Assembly: GCA_030695685.1 (NCBI GenBank)
Contig: JAUYPT010000078.1
Coordinates: forward strand, 1 to 35,169
Reading direction: 5' to 3'
Length of the DNA stretch: 35,169 nucleotides
Origin: Nanobdellota archaeon
GTDB lineage: Archaea; Nanobdellota; Nanobdellia; Woesearchaeales; GW2011-AR9
The position numbers and the translations under genes were made by a program. Positions 1,018 to 20,742 of this stretch are shown piece after piece. Below the pieces are notes generated by a model. It did no database searches and was not told the origin of the DNA. It saw nothing but the letters and a program-made list of their open reading frames with translations. Position 1 is the stretch's first letter, and every line of letters starts with the position of its first letter.

Positions 1018-1728
1018 TTAGTTCCTTTTTGTATGAGCAGTTGAATTGTGAAGTGTAATGATGGGATCTTTTTTGCCGACAACAAAGAGATATGATTTTG
1101 CAGTCTCAATTTCTTTGCCGTTGGCAAGATACAAAGCTTCTTTTCCTTTTATTTCTTGTAGTTTGCCGACATCCCCGCCGTGTTTTCCTTTCGTCAGGAA
1201 AACTGTCGCTCCTGGATCTAACGGCAGAACTTCTTTGAATGCAAGCTGCGGCAGCTCTAAAACAATACTGTCGCCTACTTTTACTTTTTTATCAGTGATA
1301 ATATTTTTACCATCATAAAGATTAAGTTGAATTTTACCTTTTGATAACATTGTTTTACCAATAACTTTAAACGGCTTAAGTGTGCTTTCTGCGGCGGAAA
1401 TTTCAACGAGGATAAGTCTTCCCTGATTATCTAAGACAACACGGTACTGTTTCTTTAATTCAGGGAATGAAAGAACATCAAATAATCCTACCATAAAACG
1501 GTGATCTTTTCTTCTTTTACCATCAACAAGCACTTCTTTATTATTGAGGATTTTACGCACTTCTCCCATCATAGAGGCATGATGAAGAATGTCCCGCAGT
1601 ATAATTCCTAATGACATTCCCGTATCTAAGGAATGAGCGCCTGCGTTAGGCCGAACGATGAAAATGTTCTGCTGCCGGTCCAAAATCCATGTTTTTGGTG
1701 CCGCAATTCTTTTCAGATGATTTTTCAT
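1018..1728 (-). CDS. rps4e: 30S ribosomal protein eS4
   Basis: The N-terminus HLKRIAAPKTW...PNAGAHS and VLVDGKRRKDHRFMVGLFDVLS match the eS4 family. It lies between uL24 and uL5. Confidence 0.93.
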   Translation of the reverse strand: MKNHLKRIAAPKTWILDRQQNIFIVRPNAGAHSLDTGMSLGIILRDILHHASMMGEVRKILNNKEVLVDGKRRKDHRFMVGLFDVLSFPELKKQYRVVLDNQGRLILVEISAAESTLKPFKVIGKTMLSKGKIQLNLYDGKNIITDKKVKVGDSIVLELPQLAFKEVLPLDPGATVFLTKGKHGGDVGKLQEIKGKEALYLANGKEIETAKSYLFVVGKKDPIITLHNSTAHTKRN

Positions 1729-2183
1729 GGGAGATTACCTTTTCCTTGTTTTTTATGGTCCTTAGCTGGTGTAGCAGCCATGGTTTTCTTTTTTGATTCC
1801 AGTTTTTGTTTTCGTAGTTTATCACTTACATCCAACTCTATAATCATTAATTTTGACGGCAGTAAAGGAAACGGCACTTTGGAACCGTCTTTTTTTATAG
1901 TTTCTATCCCATTGACAAAAATGGAATTCCGTTTTAGGAGAACTCGTTCCACTTTTCCTTCTTTCTTCTGATGGGATCCTCGAAGAACCGTAACCTTATC
2001 TCCCTTCCGTACTTGGATATTTCGAAAGCCATATTTCTGCCGTAGTGCCGGCGACAAATGAACATGAACTCTTTTCTGCCGGAGATGGAGTGGAGCATTA
2101 TACCTATACTTACGCTGTTTACGCACTTGTGTACTGCTTTTCCATGCTCTGGAAAAAGTTTTGGGAATTGATTTTAGTATCAT
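1725..2183 (-). CDS. rpl24: 50S ribosomal protein uL24, with Lys-rich C-terminal tail
   Basis: KQRKYRYNAPLHLRQK...VRKGDKVTVLRGSHQKKEGKV is a KOW motif. It overlaps eS4 by 4 nt. Confidence 0.92.
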   Translation of the reverse strand: MILKSIPKTFSRAWKSSTQVRKQRKYRYNAPLHLRQKRVHVHLSPALRQKYGFRNIQVRKGDKVTVLRGSHQKKEGKVERVLLKRNSIFVNGIETIKKDGSKVPFPLLPSKLMIIELDVSDKLRKQKLESKKKTMAATPAKDHKKQGKGNLP

Positions 2184-2199
2184 TTTTATGTATCTACCA

Positions 2200-2601
2200 T
2201 TAAATTATCATTGATGCTAATTTAGCTACTGCCGGCCAACGCTCGGCTACTTCTTTGGCAATTGGACCTTTCAGGAGCGTGCCTTTTGGATTTCCTTTTT
2301 CATCCTTTAAAACAACGGCAGCATTATCCTCAAATTTGATTCTCATGCCATCCGGACGCCTGTATTCTTTTTTCTGGCGGACAATGATGGCAGGAACGAC
2401 TGTTTTTCTCATCTCTAACTTTCCTTTTTTGACGCTCGCTAAAACCAAATCGCCAACACCAGCAGTAGGAATTCTACCGCGGGAAGTTTTGCTTCCTTTA
2501 ACAGCTACTATTTTTAAGATTTTAGCGCCGGAATTATCGCATGTCGCCACATACGCCTGTGAGGGCAATGATTTTATAACGTTACTTTTGAGCGCTTTCA
2601 T
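2200..2601 (-). CDS. rpl14: 50S ribosomal protein uL14
   Basis: 133 aa; ATCDNSGAK...GDLVLASVKKG...IVRQKKEYRRPDG..IKFEDNA is typical of uL14. Confidence 0.95.
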   Translation of the reverse strand: MKALKSNVIKSLPSQAYVATCDNSGAKILKIVAVKGSKTSRGRIPTAGVGDLVLASVKKGKLEMRKTVVPAIIVRQKKEYRRPDGMRIKFEDNAAVVLKDEKGNPKGTLLKGPIAKEVAERWPAVAKLASMII

Positions 2602-3002
2602 CGTACTTTTCCTTCCTCTTTAGCGGCTACCTTCGCCGTTTCTTTCTTTTTGGCTGATTTAGATACTGCTGATTTTTCATCACTGCCAACAACAGCAAGT
2701 ATAACATGATTTTTTGTTTTACTTAATGGACGTGTTCTCGCTGCTAAGACATTATCTCCAATCTCTGCTTCTACACAGGCAGGATTATGGACGTGCATCC
2801 GCGATCTTCTGAGCTCGTATCGTTCATACTTAGGAATATAATAAGGTCTAAACCATTCAATTGTTGCAGAGCGGTTACTATCTTTTTTGATAATCTTTCC
2901 TCTAAACAACTCTTTTTTAACAGAGAGCTGTCCGTGGAAAGGACATTTTTTGTCCGTACAGTCTTTTGTTGGTGCATGCACACCAAATAGTTCTTTATTC
3001 AT
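2598..3002 (-). CDS. rps17: 30S ribosomal protein uS17, with Lys-rich C-terminal tail
   Basis: CTDKKCPFHGQLSVK...RSATIEWFRPYYIPKYERYELRRSRMHVHNP matches archaeal uS17. It overlaps uL14 by 4 nt. Confidence 0.93.
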   Translation of the reverse strand: MNKELFGVHAPTKDCTDKKCPFHGQLSVKKELFRGKIIKKDSNRSATIEWFRPYYIPKYERYELRRSRMHVHNPACVEAEIGDNVLAARTRPLSKTKNHVILAVVGSDEKSAVSKSAKKKETAKVAAKEEGKVR

Positions 3003-3813: not shown

Positions 3814-4665
3814 TTACTCTTTATCCTCACTGTTTTGATCAGCTTTGTTGGCATCACTTGTAATGGCATCGCCTATAGCATCGACAACCGAGATGATTTC
3901 TTCCGCAACAGCTTCGTTCTTGGGGGAAGTAATTTCTTGTGAACCACTTTCTCCTGTTTTTTCCTTGTCGCTTTTAACCATTTTTTTCCGGGATGCTGAT
4001 TTTTTCTTTGCCGTTGTTTTTTTAGCCGGTTCTTCTTTTTCAGATATGACTTCTACTGTTTGAACAGGCTCATCAAGTACTTCAATAAGATCAGGCAATT
4101 GTAAATGAGGTGGCATAATAGATACTTTTACCCCAATAATTCCACTTTTTAAAAGTGCACTTTTTTGTGCTTTAAGAACGCCGGAAACAGCAATGTCTCC
4201 GCATTTCTTAAGATACCCTTGAAAGAAACGCCAGCTCTTTGCACGCGCACCAGGAATTTTTCCAGAGATAATTACCTCGATTCCCAAAGCACCGGCATTA
4301 AGAACATTCTCCATAATTTTATGGCCAATACTCTTAAACCGAACAGAACCGAACCTTTCCAGAGAACTGACAATGCGGTCAGCAACAAGATTGGCATCCA
4401 AAAAAATGTCTTTTACTTCATTAATTTCAATTTGAGGATTTTCTAATTTAAAGTCGGATTTTAACGTTCGGGTAAGCTCTTTAATATTAGCGCCTTTAGA
4501 CCCGACGATAAGGCTCGGCCGTCCTGCAGAAATGATTATTTTCTCTCCAAGAGGGATCTTCTTCAGCGTTACGTGGGAAATGCCAGCTCCTTTGAGTTTA
4601 TTTTCTATATATTTCTTAATGTAATACTCTTTCGTTTTCTGGACTATAAATTCCCGTTCAATCAT
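3814..4665 (-). CDS. rps3: 30S ribosomal protein uS3, with about 75-aa low-complexity K/E/S-rich C-terminal extension
   Basis: KH-domain region GRPSLIVGSKGANIKELT and the C-terminal domain GIEVIISGKIPGARAK match uS3. The tail is EKEEPAKKTTAKKKSASRKK... Confidence 0.94.
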   Translation of the reverse strand: MIEREFIVQKTKEYYIKKYIENKLKGAGISHVTLKKIPLGEKIIISAGRPSLIVGSKGANIKELTRTLKSDFKLENPQIEINEVKDIFLDANLVADRIVSSLERFGSVRFKSIGHKIMENVLNAGALGIEVIISGKIPGARAKSWRFFQGYLKKCGDIAVSGVLKAQKSALLKSGIIGVKVSIMPPHLQLPDLIEVLDEPVQTVEVISEKEEPAKKTTAKKKSASRKKMVKSDKEKTGESGSQEITSPKNEAVAEEIISVVDAIGDAITSDANKADQNSEDKE

Positions 4666-5183
4666 GATTGTGCCTCATTCTGTTTTTTATCCGCTGCCGG
4701 CAATGTTTTTTTTCTCGCCTTCTTTGAGGCCGTAGATTTTGCAGAATTTTGTTCCGTCAACGCTTCCATAACCATCACTTCTAAGTGTGTCCGTTTTGTT
4801 CCGTGCCGGATCCTGCCACCAGTTAATGGAATGCTCGCTTTATTGGCGAGAAGTTTTACGATCTTAAGATTGGTCGTATTCAACCCTTTGGCATGAGCGT
4901 TGGCTTCTACGGATTTAATTAAACGCAAAAATTCCCGAGCCGCTTTCTGAGGATAACGTCCTGCCGCCATACCTGCTTTATGGCCCATATCTTGAGTAAA
5001 CCTTGTGAATGGAACTGCTTTCCGCAGCAAGGCTACTTCACCTAAAAATTTCTTGGCAAAGGTCGTATTTTTATAGCGCAGATAACGGCTAATTTCAATG
5101 CTCTGCTTCGTTGAAATAGGAAGATTAGTCATTTTCGCAGATGCGCGATGTTCCGTTCCTATCGTATTTTTTGTCGTTGCCAT
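4662..5183 (-). CDS. rpl22: 50S ribosomal protein uL22
   Basis: ASAKMTNLPISTKQSIEISRYLRYK...GRYPQKAAREFLRLIKSVEANA is uL22. I prefer the start at MATTKN (5183) because the 5237 start would overlap the uS19 3' end by 44 nt. Confidence 0.9.
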   Translation of the reverse strand: MATTKNTIGTEHRASAKMTNLPISTKQSIEISRYLRYKNTTFAKKFLGEVALLRKAVPFTRFTQDMGHKAGMAAGRYPQKAAREFLRLIKSVEANAHAKGLNTTNLKIVKLLANKASIPLTGGRIRHGTKRTHLEVMVMEALTEQNSAKSTASKKARKKTLPAADKKQNEAQS

Positions 5184-5193
5184 TGTTCTAATT

Positions 5194-5577
5194 TTATCGT
5201 GCAGAGACTGCCCTGCTTGACCTCGTTGCGCCAACACCGGCAGAACTGTGCGTTACAAACTTGCGGGTATGGGAAAATTCACCTAAATAATGGCCAAGCA
5301 TTTCTGCTGTTACCGTAACAGGAACAAACTCCTTCCCATTATAGACACGAATTAACTTGCCCAGCATCAAAGGAATAATAATCATATCCCGGCAATGAGT
5401 TTTAACATTATTATCACCGGTTTCTAATCGTTTAATAAGACTCTTCTGGTATTCTGTAAAACCGCGTTGTAATGATCGCCGCTGACGAGCGGGCACTAAA
5501 GCAGTAAACTCGCGTAACCCCAGCTGCTTAAGGTCATCTTCTGTCTTTCCCCGCCACATAAATTGTTTTATTGCCAT
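5194..5577 (-). CDS. rps19: 30S ribosomal protein uS19
   Basis: RRSLQRGF...KTHCRDMIIIPLMLGKLIRVYNGKEFVPVTVTAEMLGHYLGEFSHTRK is typical of uS19. Confidence 0.95.
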   Translation of the reverse strand: MAIKQFMWRGKTEDDLKQLGLREFTALVPARQRRSLQRGFTEYQKSLIKRLETGDNNVKTHCRDMIIIPLMLGKLIRVYNGKEFVPVTVTAEMLGHYLGEFSHTRKFVTHSSAGVGATRSSRAVSAR

Positions 5578-5584
5578 TGTTTAC

Positions 5585-6289
5585 TTACCTTCTCCTTCCT
5601 GTCCTGCGTGGTGCAATCTTCCCTACTTTCCTTCCCGGAGGAGCATTACGCGGCGATTGTGTTGGTCTTCCTTTAATGTGGGAACATTTTCCACCAAAAG
5701 GATGGTCAACTGCGTTCATAGAGATACCACAGACGTGAGGATATAATTTATTACGAGCTCTCATTTTTTTATACTTTGTCCCTGCTTTAAGAAAGGGCTT
5801 GTCTAACCTGCCGCTTCCTGCAACGATGCCTAAGGATGCTTTACATGTTGGCAGGAAAATTTTTTCCTTTTTTGAGGGTAAAACGACGCGGACAATGTCT
5901 TCGCTTTTGGCTACAACTTTCGCAAAAGAACCAGAGGCACGTACTAGTTTACCGCCGTCACCAGGATGAATTTCAATATTATGGATTAAAGACCCTTCGG
6001 GAATTTCACTGAGCGGAAGAACGTTTCCATTTTTAATTTCAGCGCCTTTCCCAACCGTGATCAGATCGCCAACTTTTACCCCTTCCGGAGCAAACGTAAG
6101 ATTATGAGCACCTGTAAGATATGATACCTCCATTAACGGAGCTGTATGGCCGGCACAGTGGATTATATCGGTAATCTGGCCTTTTGTATCTAATGGATAA
6201 TGTTTTGCTTCTCCCTTAAAGCGGAAGCTAGGAGAAGTATAGGTTTTTGTTCCCCGTCCCCGCCGTTGTTGTATCAGTCGTTTACCCAT
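5585..6289 (-). CDS. rpl2: 50S ribosomal protein uL2
   Basis: GHTAPLM...IHNIEIHPGDGGKLVRASGSFA...GISMNAVDHPFGGK match uL2 signatures. Confidence 0.96.
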   Translation of the reverse strand: MGKRLIQQRRGRGTKTYTSPSFRFKGEAKHYPLDTKGQITDIIHCAGHTAPLMEVSYLTGAHNLTFAPEGVKVGDLITVGKGAEIKNGNVLPLSEIPEGSLIHNIEIHPGDGGKLVRASGSFAKVVAKSEDIVRVVLPSKKEKIFLPTCKASLGIVAGSGRLDKPFLKAGTKYKKMRARNKLYPHVCGISMNAVDHPFGGKCSHIKGRPTQSPRNAPPGRKVGKIAPRRTGRRR

Positions 6290-6650
6290 GGTATAAACCT
6301 GCTTGTTGGAGTAATTTTAATTCCGTTTTCAAGCACTCTCTTCTTTCTGGCGTATCTATTTCATAATATCCCTGGCCCTCATCTTCATCTAAGCCATCCA
6401 CAACTAAATCTCCTGTTTGATCAAAAGAAATATTTTCATTATGTATCACTTCTCTTACAATAGCAGTCATTCTATCATCGTGATCGATGCTCAGAAAAAT
6501 TCTCCTTTCTCCAACTCTACCTTCATAAACTGCAAGATAAGCACCATCATAGTATTCGGAACCATAGTCTAACTTCACCCTATCACCAGCCACAAGGCTA
6601 TCTAAGTCTACGTAGGTATATACTCGTTTTGTTGCTGGTATATTTGCCAT
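6282..6650 (-). CDS. Hypothetical acidic protein inserted between uL23 and uL2 (no family recognised)
   Basis: A 122-aa ORF fills the entire 362-nt uL23-uL2 gap on the operon strand. Its ATG lies 1 nt after the uL23 stop and its stop overlaps the uL2 start by 8 nt. The sequence resembles no ribosomal protein I know. Confidence 0.65.
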   Translation of the reverse strand: MANIPATKRVYTYVDLDSLVAGDRVKLDYGSEYYDGAYLAVYEGRVGERRIFLSIDHDDRMTAIVREVIHNENISFDQTGDLVVDGLDEDEGQGYYEIDTPERRECLKTELKLLQQAGLYHG

Positions 6651-6651
6651 C

Positions 6652-6990
6652 TTAAATCAATCCTAAATCAGCACTGACATCGGACGCCAAACTGTCCGGC
6701 CCTAATTGAACATAGGCTATCTTTCTGCCGCTGAAGGAATTTTGAATATTAACACCGGTTACTTTTACCTTAAAGAGTTCTTCCACTGCCCGCTTGACAT
6801 CAGATTTTGTTGACTGTGGATTGACAGAAAAGACGAGCTTGTTCTCAAACTCAATCTGCCGGATGCTTTTTTCCGTCGATAAAGGAAATTGAATCACGTT
6901 ATAAGGATCAAAAGATACTGCTGGTGTTACAACACTCTTTTCATCTCTCTTGTTGAGTGCATTTTTTGTGGTTTTTCTTTTGGCTGCCAT
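6652..6990 (-). CDS. rpl23: 50S ribosomal protein uL23 (Lys-rich N-terminal extension)
   Basis: IQFPLSTEKSIRQIEFENKLVFSVNPQSTKSDVKRAVEELFKVKVTGVN is the uL23 core. Confidence 0.93.
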   Translation of the reverse strand: MAAKRKTTKNALNKRDEKSVVTPAVSFDPYNVIQFPLSTEKSIRQIEFENKLVFSVNPQSTKSDVKRAVEELFKVKVTGVNIQNSFSGRKIAYVQLGPDSLASDVSADLGLI

Positions 6991-7796
6991 TAGACAAATA
7001 ATTTTTTCTCCTTGATGCTATTAATTGCGTTTTCTGTCCATAACGTCGCTCTTCCCGGCATTGTTCCAGGCGCTAACAGCGCCGTGTTCAATGACGATGC
7101 AGGAACAACATCAACGCCAGGGATATTACGGGCTGATTTTATTAATGGGCAATCTGCCCCAACAACAATCAGGACTCCTTTCTTCTTTTGATATTTTCTG
7201 CCACGTACTTTACCCATACCGGCACGAACTTTTTTAACAGAAGACCGCTGCAGTTCATCTTCAAATCCTAATTCTATCAATACTTTTCGTGTCTCTGCAG
7301 TTTTATCCATTTTTTCGAATGCTGAATCAATGATAAAAGGATATTCTGCAGGAACTTTATGCCCTCTTTTTTCGACAATATTTTTATTGAGGACAGCACC
7401 GATAGCGGAACGAATTGCTTTTTGATTTTCTTTTTTGTTGATTTTTTGTGTCAGAATTTTTGTTGCTTTTGGAGGATGAGAACGATGCCCGCCGACAGTC
7501 TGCGGTGAAAACGCACCAACCCAGAACATGCGCATTCCCCGTCGTGATAAAACTTTTCGGTTAACTCTACTTACTCCAAAACCATAACAGCCGCGATAGT
7601 TCCGCCGCCGCTTGCTTACTTTAGAAGAATGACGCAGACCAGCACCGGGACTAGCTCCGTACCGCTGCCGTGCAGCACTCTGCAAGGCGTGGACTGCCCG
7701 CTTAATCAGGTCAGGGCGGAATTCTTCCGAAAATTGGACAGGAAGCTCTTTATCTCCCGCTTTTTTCTTTTTGAGGTCAAATATTGCAATCTTCAT
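6990..7796 (-). CDS. rpl4: 50S ribosomal protein uL4
   Basis: RPDLIKRAV...RQRYGASPGAGLRHS...FSPQTVGGHRSHPPK matches archaeal uL4 (L1e). Confidence 0.94.
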   Translation of the reverse strand: MKIAIFDLKKKKAGDKELPVQFSEEFRPDLIKRAVHALQSAARQRYGASPGAGLRHSSKVSKRRRNYRGCYGFGVSRVNRKVLSRRGMRMFWVGAFSPQTVGGHRSHPPKATKILTQKINKKENQKAIRSAIGAVLNKNIVEKRGHKVPAEYPFIIDSAFEKMDKTAETRKVLIELGFEDELQRSSVKKVRAGMGKVRGRKYQKKKGVLIVVGADCPLIKSARNIPGVDVVPASSLNTALLAPGTMPGRATLWTENAINSIKEKKLFV

Positions 7797-7804
7797 GAGT
7801 GTTT

Positions 7805-8773
7805 TTAGTGCTGAACCGACAGATGAGTAATCTGCGGCGCCTCCTTAATTAGTTTTTTGTTCGGCCGAATTGCCTGTGTTAATAATACTGCCCTTTTCTT
7901 AGGGCCAATAACAGATCCTTTGATCAGAACATAGGTATTTTTAATGAGGCCATAATGATTAAAACCAGATTTAGGAGTGATATCGCTGCTATCATTTCCT
8001 ATTTTAAGAAGTTGTTTATTATATTCCGTCCGTAAGTGGTATCCCATCTTACCGGATTGAGGAACGCTAAAACGAACACGGTTTGGATGCCATGGTCCAA
8101 GAGTCCCAATACCACGCTTCACTTTTTCTGCCTTATGCTGCCGTATATGTGCACCAAACCTTTTGATTGTTCCTTGGAAACCTTTTCCGATGCTGACACC
8201 ATGAACATCAAGTTGGTTGCCATTCTCAAAAACATCTTTAACCTCAATTTCTTTACCAAGAACATTTTTAGCATAACTCATTTTCTCGTCTTTAGAACCG
8301 CCAATTGTAATTTCCATTAATTTTGGTCTCTTTGTGCCAACAGACGTTAATTTTGGATTAGATTGAACAAGCAAGCGGAGGTCATCAAAATCGGTAATTG
8401 CATCCAGTGTTTTCTTATTTTTCTTTGGCAATTGAATTTTACGGCCAAGCTCTTTTGTTACATTTGCGGCCCAGATAGAAGAAATTTTACGAACCCCATA
8501 GATTGATTTTTTATAGAAGGCGAGACCATATACTGTCATCGGCGGACAGTCAATAATTGTTGCCGGGAAAAAAATCTCTTCCCCCTTCGTCAATGATCGC
8601 GGCCGGTTATCAAGAATATGAAGATGCGTCATCCCTGCTTTATAGCCAATAAAGCCAAGCGGTTTTACTTTGCTTTCATTTGCCCAAGAGCGTACTCTAG
8701 CTAAAGAATGTTTCGACCTTTTTCGAGGCCAGTACTGCAAGCTCCCTAAACGGGGATGATTTATTTTAGGCAT
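7805..8773 (-). CDS. rpl3: 50S ribosomal protein uL3
   Basis: HPRLGSLQYWPRKRS...GFIGYKAGMTH...GKGFQGTIKRFG...GTLGPWHP match uL3. It is the first gene of the operon. Confidence 0.96.
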   Translation of the reverse strand: MPKINHPRLGSLQYWPRKRSKHSLARVRSWANESKVKPLGFIGYKAGMTHLHILDNRPRSLTKGEEIFFPATIIDCPPMTVYGLAFYKKSIYGVRKISSIWAANVTKELGRKIQLPKKNKKTLDAITDFDDLRLLVQSNPKLTSVGTKRPKLMEITIGGSKDEKMSYAKNVLGKEIEVKDVFENGNQLDVHGVSIGKGFQGTIKRFGAHIRQHKAEKVKRGIGTLGPWHPNRVRFSVPQSGKMGYHLRTEYNKQLLKIGNDSSDITPKSGFNHYGLIKNTYVLIKGSVIGPKKRAVLLTQAIRPNKKLIKEAPQITHLSVQH

Positions 8774-10911: not shown

Positions 10912-11913
10912 TTAACGTTCACGAAGATAACTAAATTCATATCTCTTTTCACACATATTTATCAAAGCTTGTGCATCAGAAATAATTGAGGGTAATTGAT
11001 TTTTGTAATAATCAGTTAATACATTAGCTTTGAAATCAACATAATAATGAATATTTTTATTGTAAATAGTTATAGTATTTTCTGGAGTACAAAAGATTGT
11101 TGCACTTTGAAGATAATTTAAACCTGTAACTAAAGTTAAATCCTCAGCAGGTTTTTCCCAATAATTTTCAGTAGTCCTATTAACGATGATATTATAGTGA
11201 TCTAAAGATATTAAATGTCTTAATACTATTTTTTGACTAACACTTTCTAAAAGTATAGTTTCATCCACAATTACTTCTTGATTATTTAAAGAATGACTAA
11301 TGTAAGAAAGTTCATTATCATTATAATTTTTTTGAATTAGTTTAAGAGCATCACCTTTTTGAAAACTTTCAATAAATTCTTGTCTGTTTCTTTCAATATG
11401 TTCACTAAAATAATGTTCATTATTTTTAACATAAGCGAGAAGTTCTTCCCCTGGTTTAATAGGATTCTCACTCATTAATGATACTGTAACAAGCCTATAA
11501 GGTAATACTTTATTCACTTTTTTGTCATATGATGATGTAATACCTAAAGTATTAGTTCGCAATGGCTGATAAGCAAAAAAACTAATGTCTGCAAATTCTT
11601 TATCTTTCTGTAAAACTAAGAATTCATCAGGGTTAAAAATCAAGACATTTCCTATGTCTGCTTGCAAATCAGAAAGGGTATAAGAACTTGCTTTAACATT
11701 TGAACCATTATCAGATTCTAATAAATTACCTGTTTCATCACGATCACAAATAGAATTATCATTTTTATCTAAGCAACATTCAGTTCCTACAAGAATATAA
11801 GGCTTATTGCAGACAACCTGATTAGTGTTAGTAGTGCTTTGGGTACAGCCAGTTATAATAACTAAGAAAGTCACTAACAAAAAACATAATAGTATATTTC
11901 TTAACAAAGACAT
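10912..11913 (-). CDS. Hypothetical secreted lipoprotein (signal peptide plus lipobox-like ITGC, Cys-rich N-terminal segment)
   Basis: 333-aa ORF with hydrophobic N-terminus LLCFLLVTFLVIITGCTQ. It is visibly more AT-rich than its neighbours. A TATA-like TTTATTTAAAT lies about 20-30 nt upstream. Confidence 0.6.
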   Translation of the reverse strand: MSLLRNILLCFLLVTFLVIITGCTQSTTNTNQVVCNKPYILVGTECCLDKNDNSICDRDETGNLLESDNGSNVKASSYTLSDLQADIGNVLIFNPDEFLVLQKDKEFADISFFAYQPLRTNTLGITSSYDKKVNKVLPYRLVTVSLMSENPIKPGEELLAYVKNNEHYFSEHIERNRQEFIESFQKGDALKLIQKNYNDNELSYISHSLNNQEVIVDETILLESVSQKIVLRHLISLDHYNIIVNRTTENYWEKPAEDLTLVTGLNYLQSATIFCTPENTITIYNKNIHYYVDFKANVLTDYYKNQLPSIISDAQALINMCEKRYEFSYLRER

Positions 11914-19384: not shown

Positions 19385-19788
19385 GGTAGCAGTGGCAGGG
19401 AGCCGACGGTGAACTGTCAAAGGTTTGCTGAGGAAAGTCCGTCCACCCGCGATGTAATTCGCACTATGGTTGCTCTCTTATGAGAGACGGAGAAATCCGT
19501 GGCTCTGGCTCAGAAACGACACGTCCTGCAGACTAAGGGATGATGATGCAAAAAATGAAGATAAATACTTCATTTTTGCACAGAAATATGATCTTTTTCA
19601 TATTTCTTGTGGCGACACTTTCTGTGAAGAAAGTAAGTTAACCCGCGGACGTCTCTGCAGGGACCGATGAAACGGCGAATCCCAACCGGTGCAAGTCAAG
19701 TTTTGACGCTGAGTAGAATGCTCCAACAGGCTATCGGTGCTCATCGAGCACTTTGGGCCTGACAGAAGACGGCTTATGCCACTCTACC
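19385..19788 (+). ncRNA. rnpB: RNase P RNA (archaeal type), about 404 nt
   Basis: CR-I GAGGAAAGUCCG (19430-19441). CR-V ACAGAAGACGGCUUAU (19762-19777), able to form P4 (AAGUCCGUC/GACGGCUU) with the conserved bulged U. P1 pairs GGUAGCAGUGGC (19385-) with GCCACUCUACC (-19788). CR-III-like ACCGGUGCAAG and CR-IV-like GAGUAGAAUG are present. A T6 tract follows. Confidence 0.93.
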
Positions 19789-19790
19789 AC

Positions 19791-19796
19791 TTTTTT
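19791..19796 (+). terminator. Oligo-T tract (archaeal-type terminator) after RNase P RNA
   Basis: TTTTTT begins 2 nt after the 3' strand of P1. Confidence 0.5.
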
Positions 19797-19815
19797 AAAT
19801 CAAACAGAAACAACA

Positions 19816-20742
19816 ATGCTCAAAGATTTATACACACTAATCACACAAGAACTAAGATATTTAGCAGACAAAGAAACACTCTGTGAACTTCCTCTGGTTG
19901 CACATGACCTACTTTTAGGAGCAAAAAGAAAACCAAAAGAACAAAACTTTACTTATATGGATCTTCATGCTCATTTCAGAAAAACAGAAAATATTAGAGA
20001 CATTATTAATGAAGCATCAAAAAGAGTCGATGTGCTTTCGATTGTTACCTGGGCAAAGGAATATAATAATGGAGAAATGAGTTTTTCCGATGCATTAGAA
20101 AAATTAGAGCAAGAAAAAGTAGAGCACCACAAAATTGGAGAGCGAATTGTCGTTATAAATAGGAGTGATGATAGACCATTTTATCTCCTACGAGCAACGG
20201 AAACTTACGTCAAAGAAAATCAAGGAGTTGTTATGGTTGGAACTGATAAGGAATTTTCAGCTGATTCGCTTACATTAGATGATGCCATTAACGAAGCAAC
20301 AGAAATGAATTCTTTTTATTTTTTAGATCATCCTTTTAGTATCGGAGTACCGGTAATTGGCTTTCGCTATCCAACGGAGGAAGAATTAAAACTACGACAA
20401 AAGTGGTTTGATAAGTATAACCCTGTTATTGAAATCCATAACCATCAAAACACGCTGTGGATGTTTCCCTCAAACATTCTTGCAAAGAAAATGGCACAAA
20501 AGCATAACCTTGTCGGAATTGCCAATTCTGACACCCATTTTGGAATAACTGATGTTGGTCTATCACGAACCGTAATACCGTCTTCTTATTTAGATAACTA
20601 TTCTGAAGAAGCTTTTTTAAAAACATTAAAAAATGCGTTATCAATGGCACATTATGATAATATAAAAGTGGAATCAGGATACTCAAGCATCTGGAGTTTT
20701 GGAAAAAATATGATTTTGCCACGATTAATTGGAAGACATTAA
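19816..20742 (+). CDS. PHP-domain metal-dependent phosphoesterase
   Basis: YMDLHAHF (HxH), LDHPF and NSDTHF motifs typical of the PHP family. I set the start at MLKDLY (19816) because the longer ORF (19753) would overlap RNase P RNA. Confidence 0.7.
   Translation: MLKDLYTLITQELRYLADKETLCELPLVAHDLLLGAKRKPKEQNFTYMDLHAHFRKTENIRDIINEASKRVDVLSIVTWAKEYNNGEMSFSDALEKLEQEKVEHHKIGERIVVINRSDDRPFYLLRATETYVKENQGVVMVGTDKEFSADSLTLDDAINEATEMNSFYFLDHPFSIGVPVIGFRYPTEEELKLRQKWFDKYNPVIEIHNHQNTLWMFPSNILAKKMAQKHNLVGIANSDTHFGITDVGLSRTVIPSSYLDNYSEEAFLKTLKNALSMAHYDNIKVESGYSSIWSFGKNMILPRLIGRH

Follow-up and report, generated by a model that had tools for sequence, protein, structure and literature searches.

A genuine protein-coding gene lies between the ribosomal protein genes uL23 and uL2 in a 35,169-nucleotide (nt) stretch of DNA from a Nanobdellota archaeon (contig JAUYPT010000078.1 of assembly GCA_030695685.1; hereafter the window, meaning the whole stretch). 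This open reading frame (ORF), located at 6282..6650 on the minus strand and named X here, occupies a single genomic address, is joined to each neighbour through a stop/start junction of the termination-reinitiation type, and belongs to a family restricted to one subgroup of Woesearchaeota-like DPANN archaea. The X proteins are predicted to be soluble, are mostly acidic and comprise about 120 residues. They are new as a protein family and, judging from the predicted model, probably as a fold; in kind, X is like the accessory genes that archaea carry within their ribosomal-protein clusters. Few gene orders of cellular life are as conserved as that of the uL3-uL4-uL23-uL2 block, and the genomes of DPANN archaea are among the most reduced known.

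X and its junctions with uL23 and uL2

The gap between uL23 and uL2 measures 362 nt (6290..6651) and is filled entirely by X, an ORF of 122 codons with an ATG start. A single nucleotide (6651) separates the uL23 stop from this ATG, and the final 8 nt of X (6282..6289, ATGGGTAA) are shared with the start of uL2. The X product has a computed isoelectric point (pI) of 4.49, with 25 D/E versus 13 K/R residues. An earlier note on this DNA had described a 362-nt gap filled by one ORF on the operon strand, starting 1 nt past the uL23 stop, overlapping the uL2 ATG by 8 nt and encoding an acidic protein. Its coordinates and quoted protein sequence are exact, both junctions can be read in the sequence, and the computed pI agrees with the acidity. 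The note had also regarded the layout as typical of translational coupling, which the junctions, conserved across relatives, would fit. Overlapping genes of archaea are reportedly coupled in translation by termination-reinitiation; X similarly has a stop/start overlap or a 1-nt spacer on both sides, and its putative coupling is read from this layout.

Among 20,000 mononucleotide shuffles of the X interior, only one was free of in-frame stops. This result and the intact homologues at the same junction in about 12 other lineages place X beyond chance. Independent contigs from two groundwater runs, a Logan contig covering 5331..7936 and a contig from the second run covering 5963..6594, show 0 differences to the window, so the junction is not an assembly artefact. 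A chance ORF or an assembly chimera is thus an explanation of negligible probability.

Members and distribution of the X family

Some 15 billion proteins were searched, yielding a homologue total of about 20 sequences of 104-126 amino acids (aa). A single-sequence search of 5.8 billion clusters revealed two homologues identical in length to X, with 40% and 37% identity. A profile search of 1.84 billion representatives gave 13 true members (83-126 aa), plus two repeat proteins that were rejected as false positives; five additional members came from a second profile search and three loci from a metagenome scan with an 11-sequence alignment. The member P0012, called as 94 aa, is actually full length, its start having been miscalled. 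The pI lies between 4.2 and 5.8 in 17 of the 20 family proteins computed, a set that includes the N-truncated P0012 call. The description of X as an orphan in the earlier note therefore stands in the sense that no known family matches it, but not in the sense of a protein on its own, since this family of about 20 sequences exists.

The genomic context is readable in 12 lineages besides the window (L001-L006/L008/L020, L007, L009, L010/L011, L012, L013/L014, L015, L016/L017, L018, L019, L021 and L023). The earlier note had called for a look at the uL23-uL2 junction in related genomes, and X is found there in all 12 lineages, straight after uL23 and straight before uL2 or, in one lineage, before a tandem paralogue that precedes uL2. 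At 12 of 12 loci examined, uL23 and X are 1 nt apart or, in L015, overlap by 1 nt, and the uL23 C-terminus (...SADLGLI, then stop) is kept in all related loci. Downstream, the 8-nt overlap is present in the window, L009, L018, L015 and L023, the arrangement TAAnATG in L010, L012, L013, L016 and L021, and a 13-nt spacer in L019. By the 8-nt overlap or TAAnATG, 11 of 12 loci have the downstream layout of a coupled operon gene.

All relatives with readable context are Woesearchaeota-like DPANN archaea, in keeping with the lineage specificity that the earlier note had proposed for this ORF on the operon strand. The closest uL2 relatives that carry names share 72-76% identity and bear the label Candidatus Woesearchaeota or Nanoarchaeota archaeon, and the window also contains an archaeal RNase P RNA and Nop56/fibrillarin; these features point to a Woesearchaeota-type DPANN archaeon. 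The window derives from metagenomic sequencing of groundwater. For one locus, L008 (= L005; contig CAYIEF010000079.1, GCA_964362365.1), the label is 'uncultured Methanosarcinales archaeon', which looks wrong, since both the operon and its ribosomal proteins cluster with those of the Woesearchaeota-like loci.

The family extends to a very divergent 111-aa member in L021, whose uL2 is 85% identical to that of the window; this member is recognised by the family hidden Markov model (HMM) alone (E 4e-9). The Hainich lineage (L001-L007) harbors a second, tandem distant paralogue of X (97 aa, family HMM E 1e-8), which has a DLDxLVVGDVVKV motif in common with X. We computed a neighbour-joining tree from concatenated uL3, uL4, uL23 and uL2 (917 columns). 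L022, which is devoid of X, is placed on an internal branch between (window, L021) and (L016, (L013, (L001, L019))), with 100% bootstrap for the split. Given this placement, one gain, or one gain and one loss, explains the sampled data. The tree supports a vertical history of X, which needs no more than one gain and one loss.

Selection on X

Ratios of nonsynonymous to synonymous substitution rates (dN/dS) were calculated by the NG86 (Nei-Gojobori) method, and the corresponding ratios of proportions (pN/pS) were calculated by region over 8 pairs, for codons 1-28, the middle 72 codons and the C-terminal 22 codons. For the same pairs, dN/dS is 0.30-0.76 in X and 0.04-0.17 in uL23 and uL2. The whole-gene pN/pS of X is 0.37-0.66, with purifying selection at p < 0.005 in 5 of the 8 pairs.

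Two segments of X alone show clear purifying selection: the first ~28 residues (PETKxVY..DLxSLVAGDRV) and the C-terminal tail (LLxQAGLYxG). In codons 1-28, pN/pS is 0.23-0.52 with plentiful synonymous change, and L16, L19, G22, D23 and V25 are near-invariant. The pN/pS of the C-terminal 22 codons is 0-0.4 in three pairs, including the closest, and 0.64-0.97 in the other five; in the tail of the closest pair dN is 0 versus a dS of 0.74, and across the family L114 is invariant and G118 nearly so. Synonymous change is abundant at the termini, so what is constrained there is the protein, not the RNA. The conserved residues of the middle region (Y42, F52, L53, G80 and Y96) all belong to the core: the sheet keeps its hydrophobic core, and its surface changes near the neutral rate. 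Nucleotide identity, 0.75-0.95 in the sequence flanking X, is 0.67-0.82 over its first ~90 nt and 0.3-0.5 in its middle, with a partial rise at the 3' end.

The locus L023 has a uL2 that is 96% identical to that of the window at the amino acid level and 88.7% at the nucleotide level. Identity persists over the final ~36 nt of X, the stretch encoding LKLLQQAGLYHG, and the last 12 X residues are identical to those of the window. Directly upstream of the tail the similarity collapses abruptly (L023 1-85 against window 6282-6380), with an indel in the helix region. This pattern, from the 49 nt available, suggests allele replacement or extremely fast change within X.

Two further explanations were rejected. 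A diversity-generating retroelement would need a template repeat, and blastn of X against the 35-kb window revealed no second copy longer than 21 nt; no reverse transcriptase was found among the window ORFs scanned with Pfam, which are part of all its ORFs. Recent horizontal transfer was considered for the L007/L001 pair, whose X dS is low, and this is explained more simply by an extreme AT bias at third codon positions (GC content at third positions, GC3, of 0.10-0.17).

Predicted fold of X and searches for known relatives

AlphaFold2 (AF2) run on a 19-sequence alignment gave a model with a predicted local distance difference test (pLDDT) score of 87.7 and a predicted template modelling (pTM) score of 0.82; on a 3-sequence alignment the pLDDT was 39 and the model unusable. 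The predicted X protein comprises an N-terminal tail, a helix (13-17), strands at residues 24-30, 35-46, 49-57, 62-70, 74-76, 82-84 and 93-97, and helices at 101-106 and 108-116. This modelled arrangement of an N-terminal tail, a short helix, an antiparallel β-sheet and a C-terminal helix pair has no detectable relative.

We performed a Foldseek search with the X model against 350,542 PDB chains and BFVD, which revealed no match with E < 0.1 (best E 0.19). The top-ranked look-alikes, none of them significant, were Qbeta coat, eL21, PUR repeat, PC4-like and chromo barrel proteins, with probabilities of at most 0.38 and template modelling (TM) scores of 0.2-0.5 across partial lengths. The best ribosomal chain in the PDB was eL21 (E 0.9, TM 0.38). 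PUR repeats, PC4/Whirly-like binders and levivirus coat proteins would share with the X model a meander sheet packed by C-terminal helices, a non-significant likeness at E values of 0.19 or more and probabilities of at most 0.23. X is acidic, which argues against nucleic-acid binding.

Sequence searches were likewise negative. Pfam and NCBIfam gave no family for the X of the window at E <= 1 to 10, and 19 members compared with Pfam matched no ribosomal or translation-factor family. The family profile against PDB sequences gave a best E of 0.12, with unrelated proteins, and a single-sequence PDB search also found nothing. No family of the PADLOC models for anti-phage defence matched X at E <= 1, and no relative of X was found in PHROGs or IMG/VR. 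The observation of the earlier note that X matches no recognised ribosomal protein or translation factor therefore holds for both sequence and predicted-structure searches, including the Foldseek search it had proposed. A literature search returned no description of this uL23-uL2 insertion.

Profile-profile comparison by hhalign of X with 15 operon proteins and the two large inserted-ORF families of sister lineages gave probabilities of at most 0.8%, which excludes an origin of X as a local duplicate of a neighbouring operon gene. A '...GLY(K/H)' tail shared with the large inserted ORFs of relatives ('...LKGLYK') obtained no hhalign support. Readings of the 'LVAGDRVxL' motif as KOW/SH3, Sm-like or AbrB/MazE-like were backed by no search and were dropped.

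Possible function of X

We favor, with a probability of roughly 0.4, the reading that X serves a ribosomal partner as a small adaptor or escort. The two conserved ends of X would dock on a slowly evolving partner, and the body of the domain would be loosely constrained. The acidity of X, its address and the history of the operon suggest that the likeliest partner would be a basic ribosomal protein made beside it, either uL2 or uL23, or else the large subunit. The once-anonymous ORFs of this operon became eS4, eL32, eL19, aIF1 and Rpp29, and to our knowledge every once-unknown archaeal ORF of the operon has proved to encode a ribosomal protein or a translation/RNA-processing factor. On this reading X would not be a core ribosomal protein; it might instead be a dedicated chaperone, an assembly factor or a peripheral protein that associates with the ribosome at sub-stoichiometric levels. 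With uL2 initiation now following X termination, X would also be locked in cis.

Eukaryotic ribosomal-protein chaperones, or escortins, are acidic, of small to medium size, and each binds one basic ribosomal protein (Acl4-uL4, Yar1-uS3, Sqt1-uL10 and Bcp1-uL14). By functional analogy, this could fit the acidity of X and its place beside uL2 and uL23. In contrast to X, escortins adopt known folds, repeat folds among them, and their genes do not lie in operons; they show no sequence or fold similarity to X. We know of no such dedicated chaperone for archaeal uL2 or uL23. Within the archaeal S10/spc cluster, aIF1/SUI1 and Rpp29, both present in the window, are non-ribosomal-protein genes that like X are small, on the operon strand and tightly packed among ribosomal-protein genes, with which they would be transcribed. 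They are pan-archaeal, slow-evolving and members of Pfam families, whereas X is restricted to a Woesearchaeota subgroup, evolves about 10 times faster than its neighbours and has no detectable relatives.

Several observations weigh against the adaptor or escort reading, the first being the rate of evolution. L001 and L019 are 90.5% identical over the four concatenated ribosomal proteins and 37% over X, and L010 and L012 are 90% identical in uL2 and 38% in X. The dN/dS check on homologues proposed in the earlier note does reveal purifying selection at both termini, but the middle is near-neutral (pN/pS 0.59-1.05 over the 72 codons, indistinguishable from 1 in all but one of 8 pairs, which has p = 0.04) and the dN of X is about 5-10 times that of uL2 and uL23. 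Evolution as fast as this is unusual for ribosome-bound proteins. Two relatives with a uL2 79% and 78% identical to that of the window are devoid of X, their uL23-uL2 spacing being 16 and 7 nt, and L016 and L021 have lost the AGLY tail and kept the ORF. The GC3 of X is below that of both flanks in 7 of the 8 comparable loci (0.10-0.28 vs 0.31-0.61, the exception being the very AT-rich L021) and below that of the single available flank in two more. Within the window the GC3 of X is 0.26, at the low end of the range and not an outlier. The low GC3 suggests that efficient translation is selected for less strongly in X than in true ribosomal-protein genes. Finally, the operon of sister lineages, which holds several unrelated orphan ORFs, may simply be a permissive landing site.

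The earlier note had expected, from the position of X, stoichiometric co-expression with core ribosomal proteins and a possible association with the ribosome; a search for RNA and proteome data found none. That X is a core stoichiometric ribosomal protein is argued against by its fast rate (dN 5-10 times that of the flanking genes), its patchy presence (absence at 78-79% uL2 identity), its weaker codon bias, seen as lower GC3, and a C-terminal motif that has decayed in L016 and L021.

Somewhat unlikely, but to be taken seriously, is a function unrelated to the ribosome, for example in host/virus interaction of an episymbiont or in another accessory role. X would then use the strongest constitutive operon for its expression, and would persist because its translation delivers ribosomes to the uL2 start. 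A near-neutral or possibly diversifying surface (middle pN/pS 0.6-1.05), the abrupt collapse of similarity inside X next to a 96% identical uL2, and a GC3 under that of the flanks are consistent with such a role, as are the patchy presence of X, the tandem paralogue in one lineage and the domain-shuffled orphan ORFs in the operon of sister lineages. The absence of matches in PADLOC, PHROGs and IMG/VR speaks against it, no signal peptide or transmembrane segment is seen by eye in the X sequence, and X was never seen outside the uL23-uL2 junction. In addition, its conserved termini imply a conserved partner, which is atypical of arms-race proteins. The earlier note had also considered a selfish insertion. 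In the mobile-element sense this idea is not supported: all contexts read are the uL23-uL2 junction, X has no nuclease or transposase domain, and IMG/VR and PHROGs gave no viral homologue.

We regard as distinctly unlikely a reading in which X is a lineage-specific ribosome-bound DPANN protein of unseen fold, acidic and rapidly diversifying, and the operon is a hotspot that recruits hypervariable genes to modify or protect the ribosome. If so, the orphan ORFs with shuffled domains in sister lineages would be further examples.

In a purely cis-acting relay the peptide would be irrelevant, and selection would maintain nothing but an uninterrupted frame along which ribosomes travel from the uL23 stop to the start of uL2. 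The strictly conserved junctions, the statistically neutral middle and an ORF that stays intact in every lineage despite extreme divergence, including the motif-losing L016 and L021, are what such a relay would produce. It is nevertheless improbable: with many synonymous and few nonsynonymous changes in the N-terminal 28 codons and the C-terminal tail, it is the protein that is constrained, and not the RNA. The alignment yields a confident AF2 fold, the family length is kept at 104-126 aa, and relatives that have a 7-16 nt spacer in place of X indicate that a relay is in principle unnecessary.

A known ribosomal protein or ribosome-associated factor, diverged past recognition and relocated to this site, is very improbable. 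Examples would be an eL21-like SH3 barrel or a NAC-like protein. Chains of eL21 are among the weak Foldseek look-alikes (TM 0.36-0.39, probability at most 0.23), but eL21 is basic and X acidic. The archaeal NAC (aNAC) is an acidic protein of about 115-120 aa in which C-terminal helices come after a β domain, and its site of action is uL23 at the tunnel exit; X recalls it in size, acidity, domain layout and adjacency to uL23. However, no member of the X family matched the NAC (PF01849) or UBA models of Pfam, and no aNAC chain was among the top 50 Foldseek matches listed. In general, 0 of 19 members match Pfam or NCBIfam, the PDB profile search gave nothing below E 0.1, and all Foldseek E values were at least 0.19.

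Two conserved ends around a near-neutral body are an unusual pattern for this neighbourhood and offer a handle for experiments. The evolutionary pattern of X cautions that position in the operon is not proof of a core ribosomal role. Being located inside a conserved block across the subgroup, with a confidently predicted but unmatched fold, X is a candidate for lineage-specific ribosome biology in unculturable organisms.

Other inserted ORFs and the wider window

Further orphan ORFs are inserted in the ribosomal-protein operon of sister lineages, which suggests that in Woesearchaeota this operon gains genes more readily than expected. They comprise 255-294 aa at the uL4/uL23 and uL2/uS19 junctions, and 103-156 aa at the uS17/uL14 junction; the window has none of them. 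None had a Pfam or PADLOC match. The 272-aa and 256-aa inserted proteins are paralogues (E 6e-14). Their N-terminal domains have swapped slots between L002 and L013, and a ~55-aa C-terminal module stays with the uL4/uL23 slot. In the Hainich relative L003, the ribosomal-protein operon is immediately preceded by a gene for a RelA/SpoT-domain protein (1626-2693, minus strand), which is unusual for a DPANN archaeon.

The minus-strand cluster of the window is of the archaeal S10/spc type, with the gene order uL3, uL4, uL23, X, uL2, uS19, uL22, uS3, uL29, SUI1/aIF1, Rpp29, uS17, uL14, uL24, eS4, uL5. Coordinates of X, its segments and related features are collected in Table 1.

Table 1. Position of X, its segments and junctions, neighbouring features of the window, and inserted ORFs of related loci. 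Positions refer to the window unless a locus is named.
Feature	Position	Strand	Basis or remark
uL3	7805..8773	-	Cluster gene
uL4	6990..7796	-	Cluster gene
uL23 gene, 112 aa	6652..6990	-	Pfam Ribosomal_L23, E 4.8e-15; upstream neighbour of X
uL23 stop, 1 nt and X ATG (TAAgATG)	6648..6654	-	Upstream junction, putative coupling
X gene, 122 aa, pI 4.5, founding member of the ~20-member family	6282..6650	-	ORF, homologues, AF2 model
X codons 1-28, N-terminal tail, short helix and first strand (predicted)	6567..6650	-	M..PETKxVY..DLxSLVAGDRVxL conserved
X codons 29-100, predicted β-sheet core, fast-evolving surface	6351..6566	-	AF2 strands, pN/pS
X codons 101-122, predicted C-terminal helices, then conserved tail	6285..6350	-	AF2 helices 101-106 and 108-116
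X codons 111-122, conserved tail LKLLQQAGLYHG	6285..6320	-	Conservation among relatives
X stop/uL2 start overlap, 8 nt, ATGGGTAA	6282..6289	-	Downstream junction, putative coupling
uL2 gene, 234 aa	5585..6289	-	Pfam Ribosomal_L2_C, E 8.6e-40; downstream neighbour of X
Archaeal RNase P RNA	19394..19780	+	Rfam RF00373, 116 bits
Tandem paralogue ORF, 97 aa	L001 3840-4133 (= L002 2162-2455); start also at L007 658-706		Overlaps X stop by 4 nt
Sister-lineage inserted ORFs	L002 654-1472, 3172-3942, 7287-7757; L013 2005-2772, 4158-5042, 8211-8522; L019 6078-6902

Elsewhere, the window encodes Nop56, fibrillarin, RFC, SecD/F and an aRF1/Pelota-like protein. The listed ORF of uL22 (4662..5237, minus strand) has a GTG start located 44 nt within uS19; the real start is probably an internal ATG (MATTKNT...), which would give back the usual tight spacing. 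An ORF with a PHP-associated domain (19753..20742) follows the RNase P RNA and, as listed, overlaps its 3' end. Directly downstream of fibrillarin, an ORF of 333 aa (10912..11913, minus strand) has no Pfam match and a GC content of 0.27 with a GC3 of 0.15. It is a strong compositional outlier relative to the ~0.39 GC of the window and may be a foreign or fast-evolving gene.

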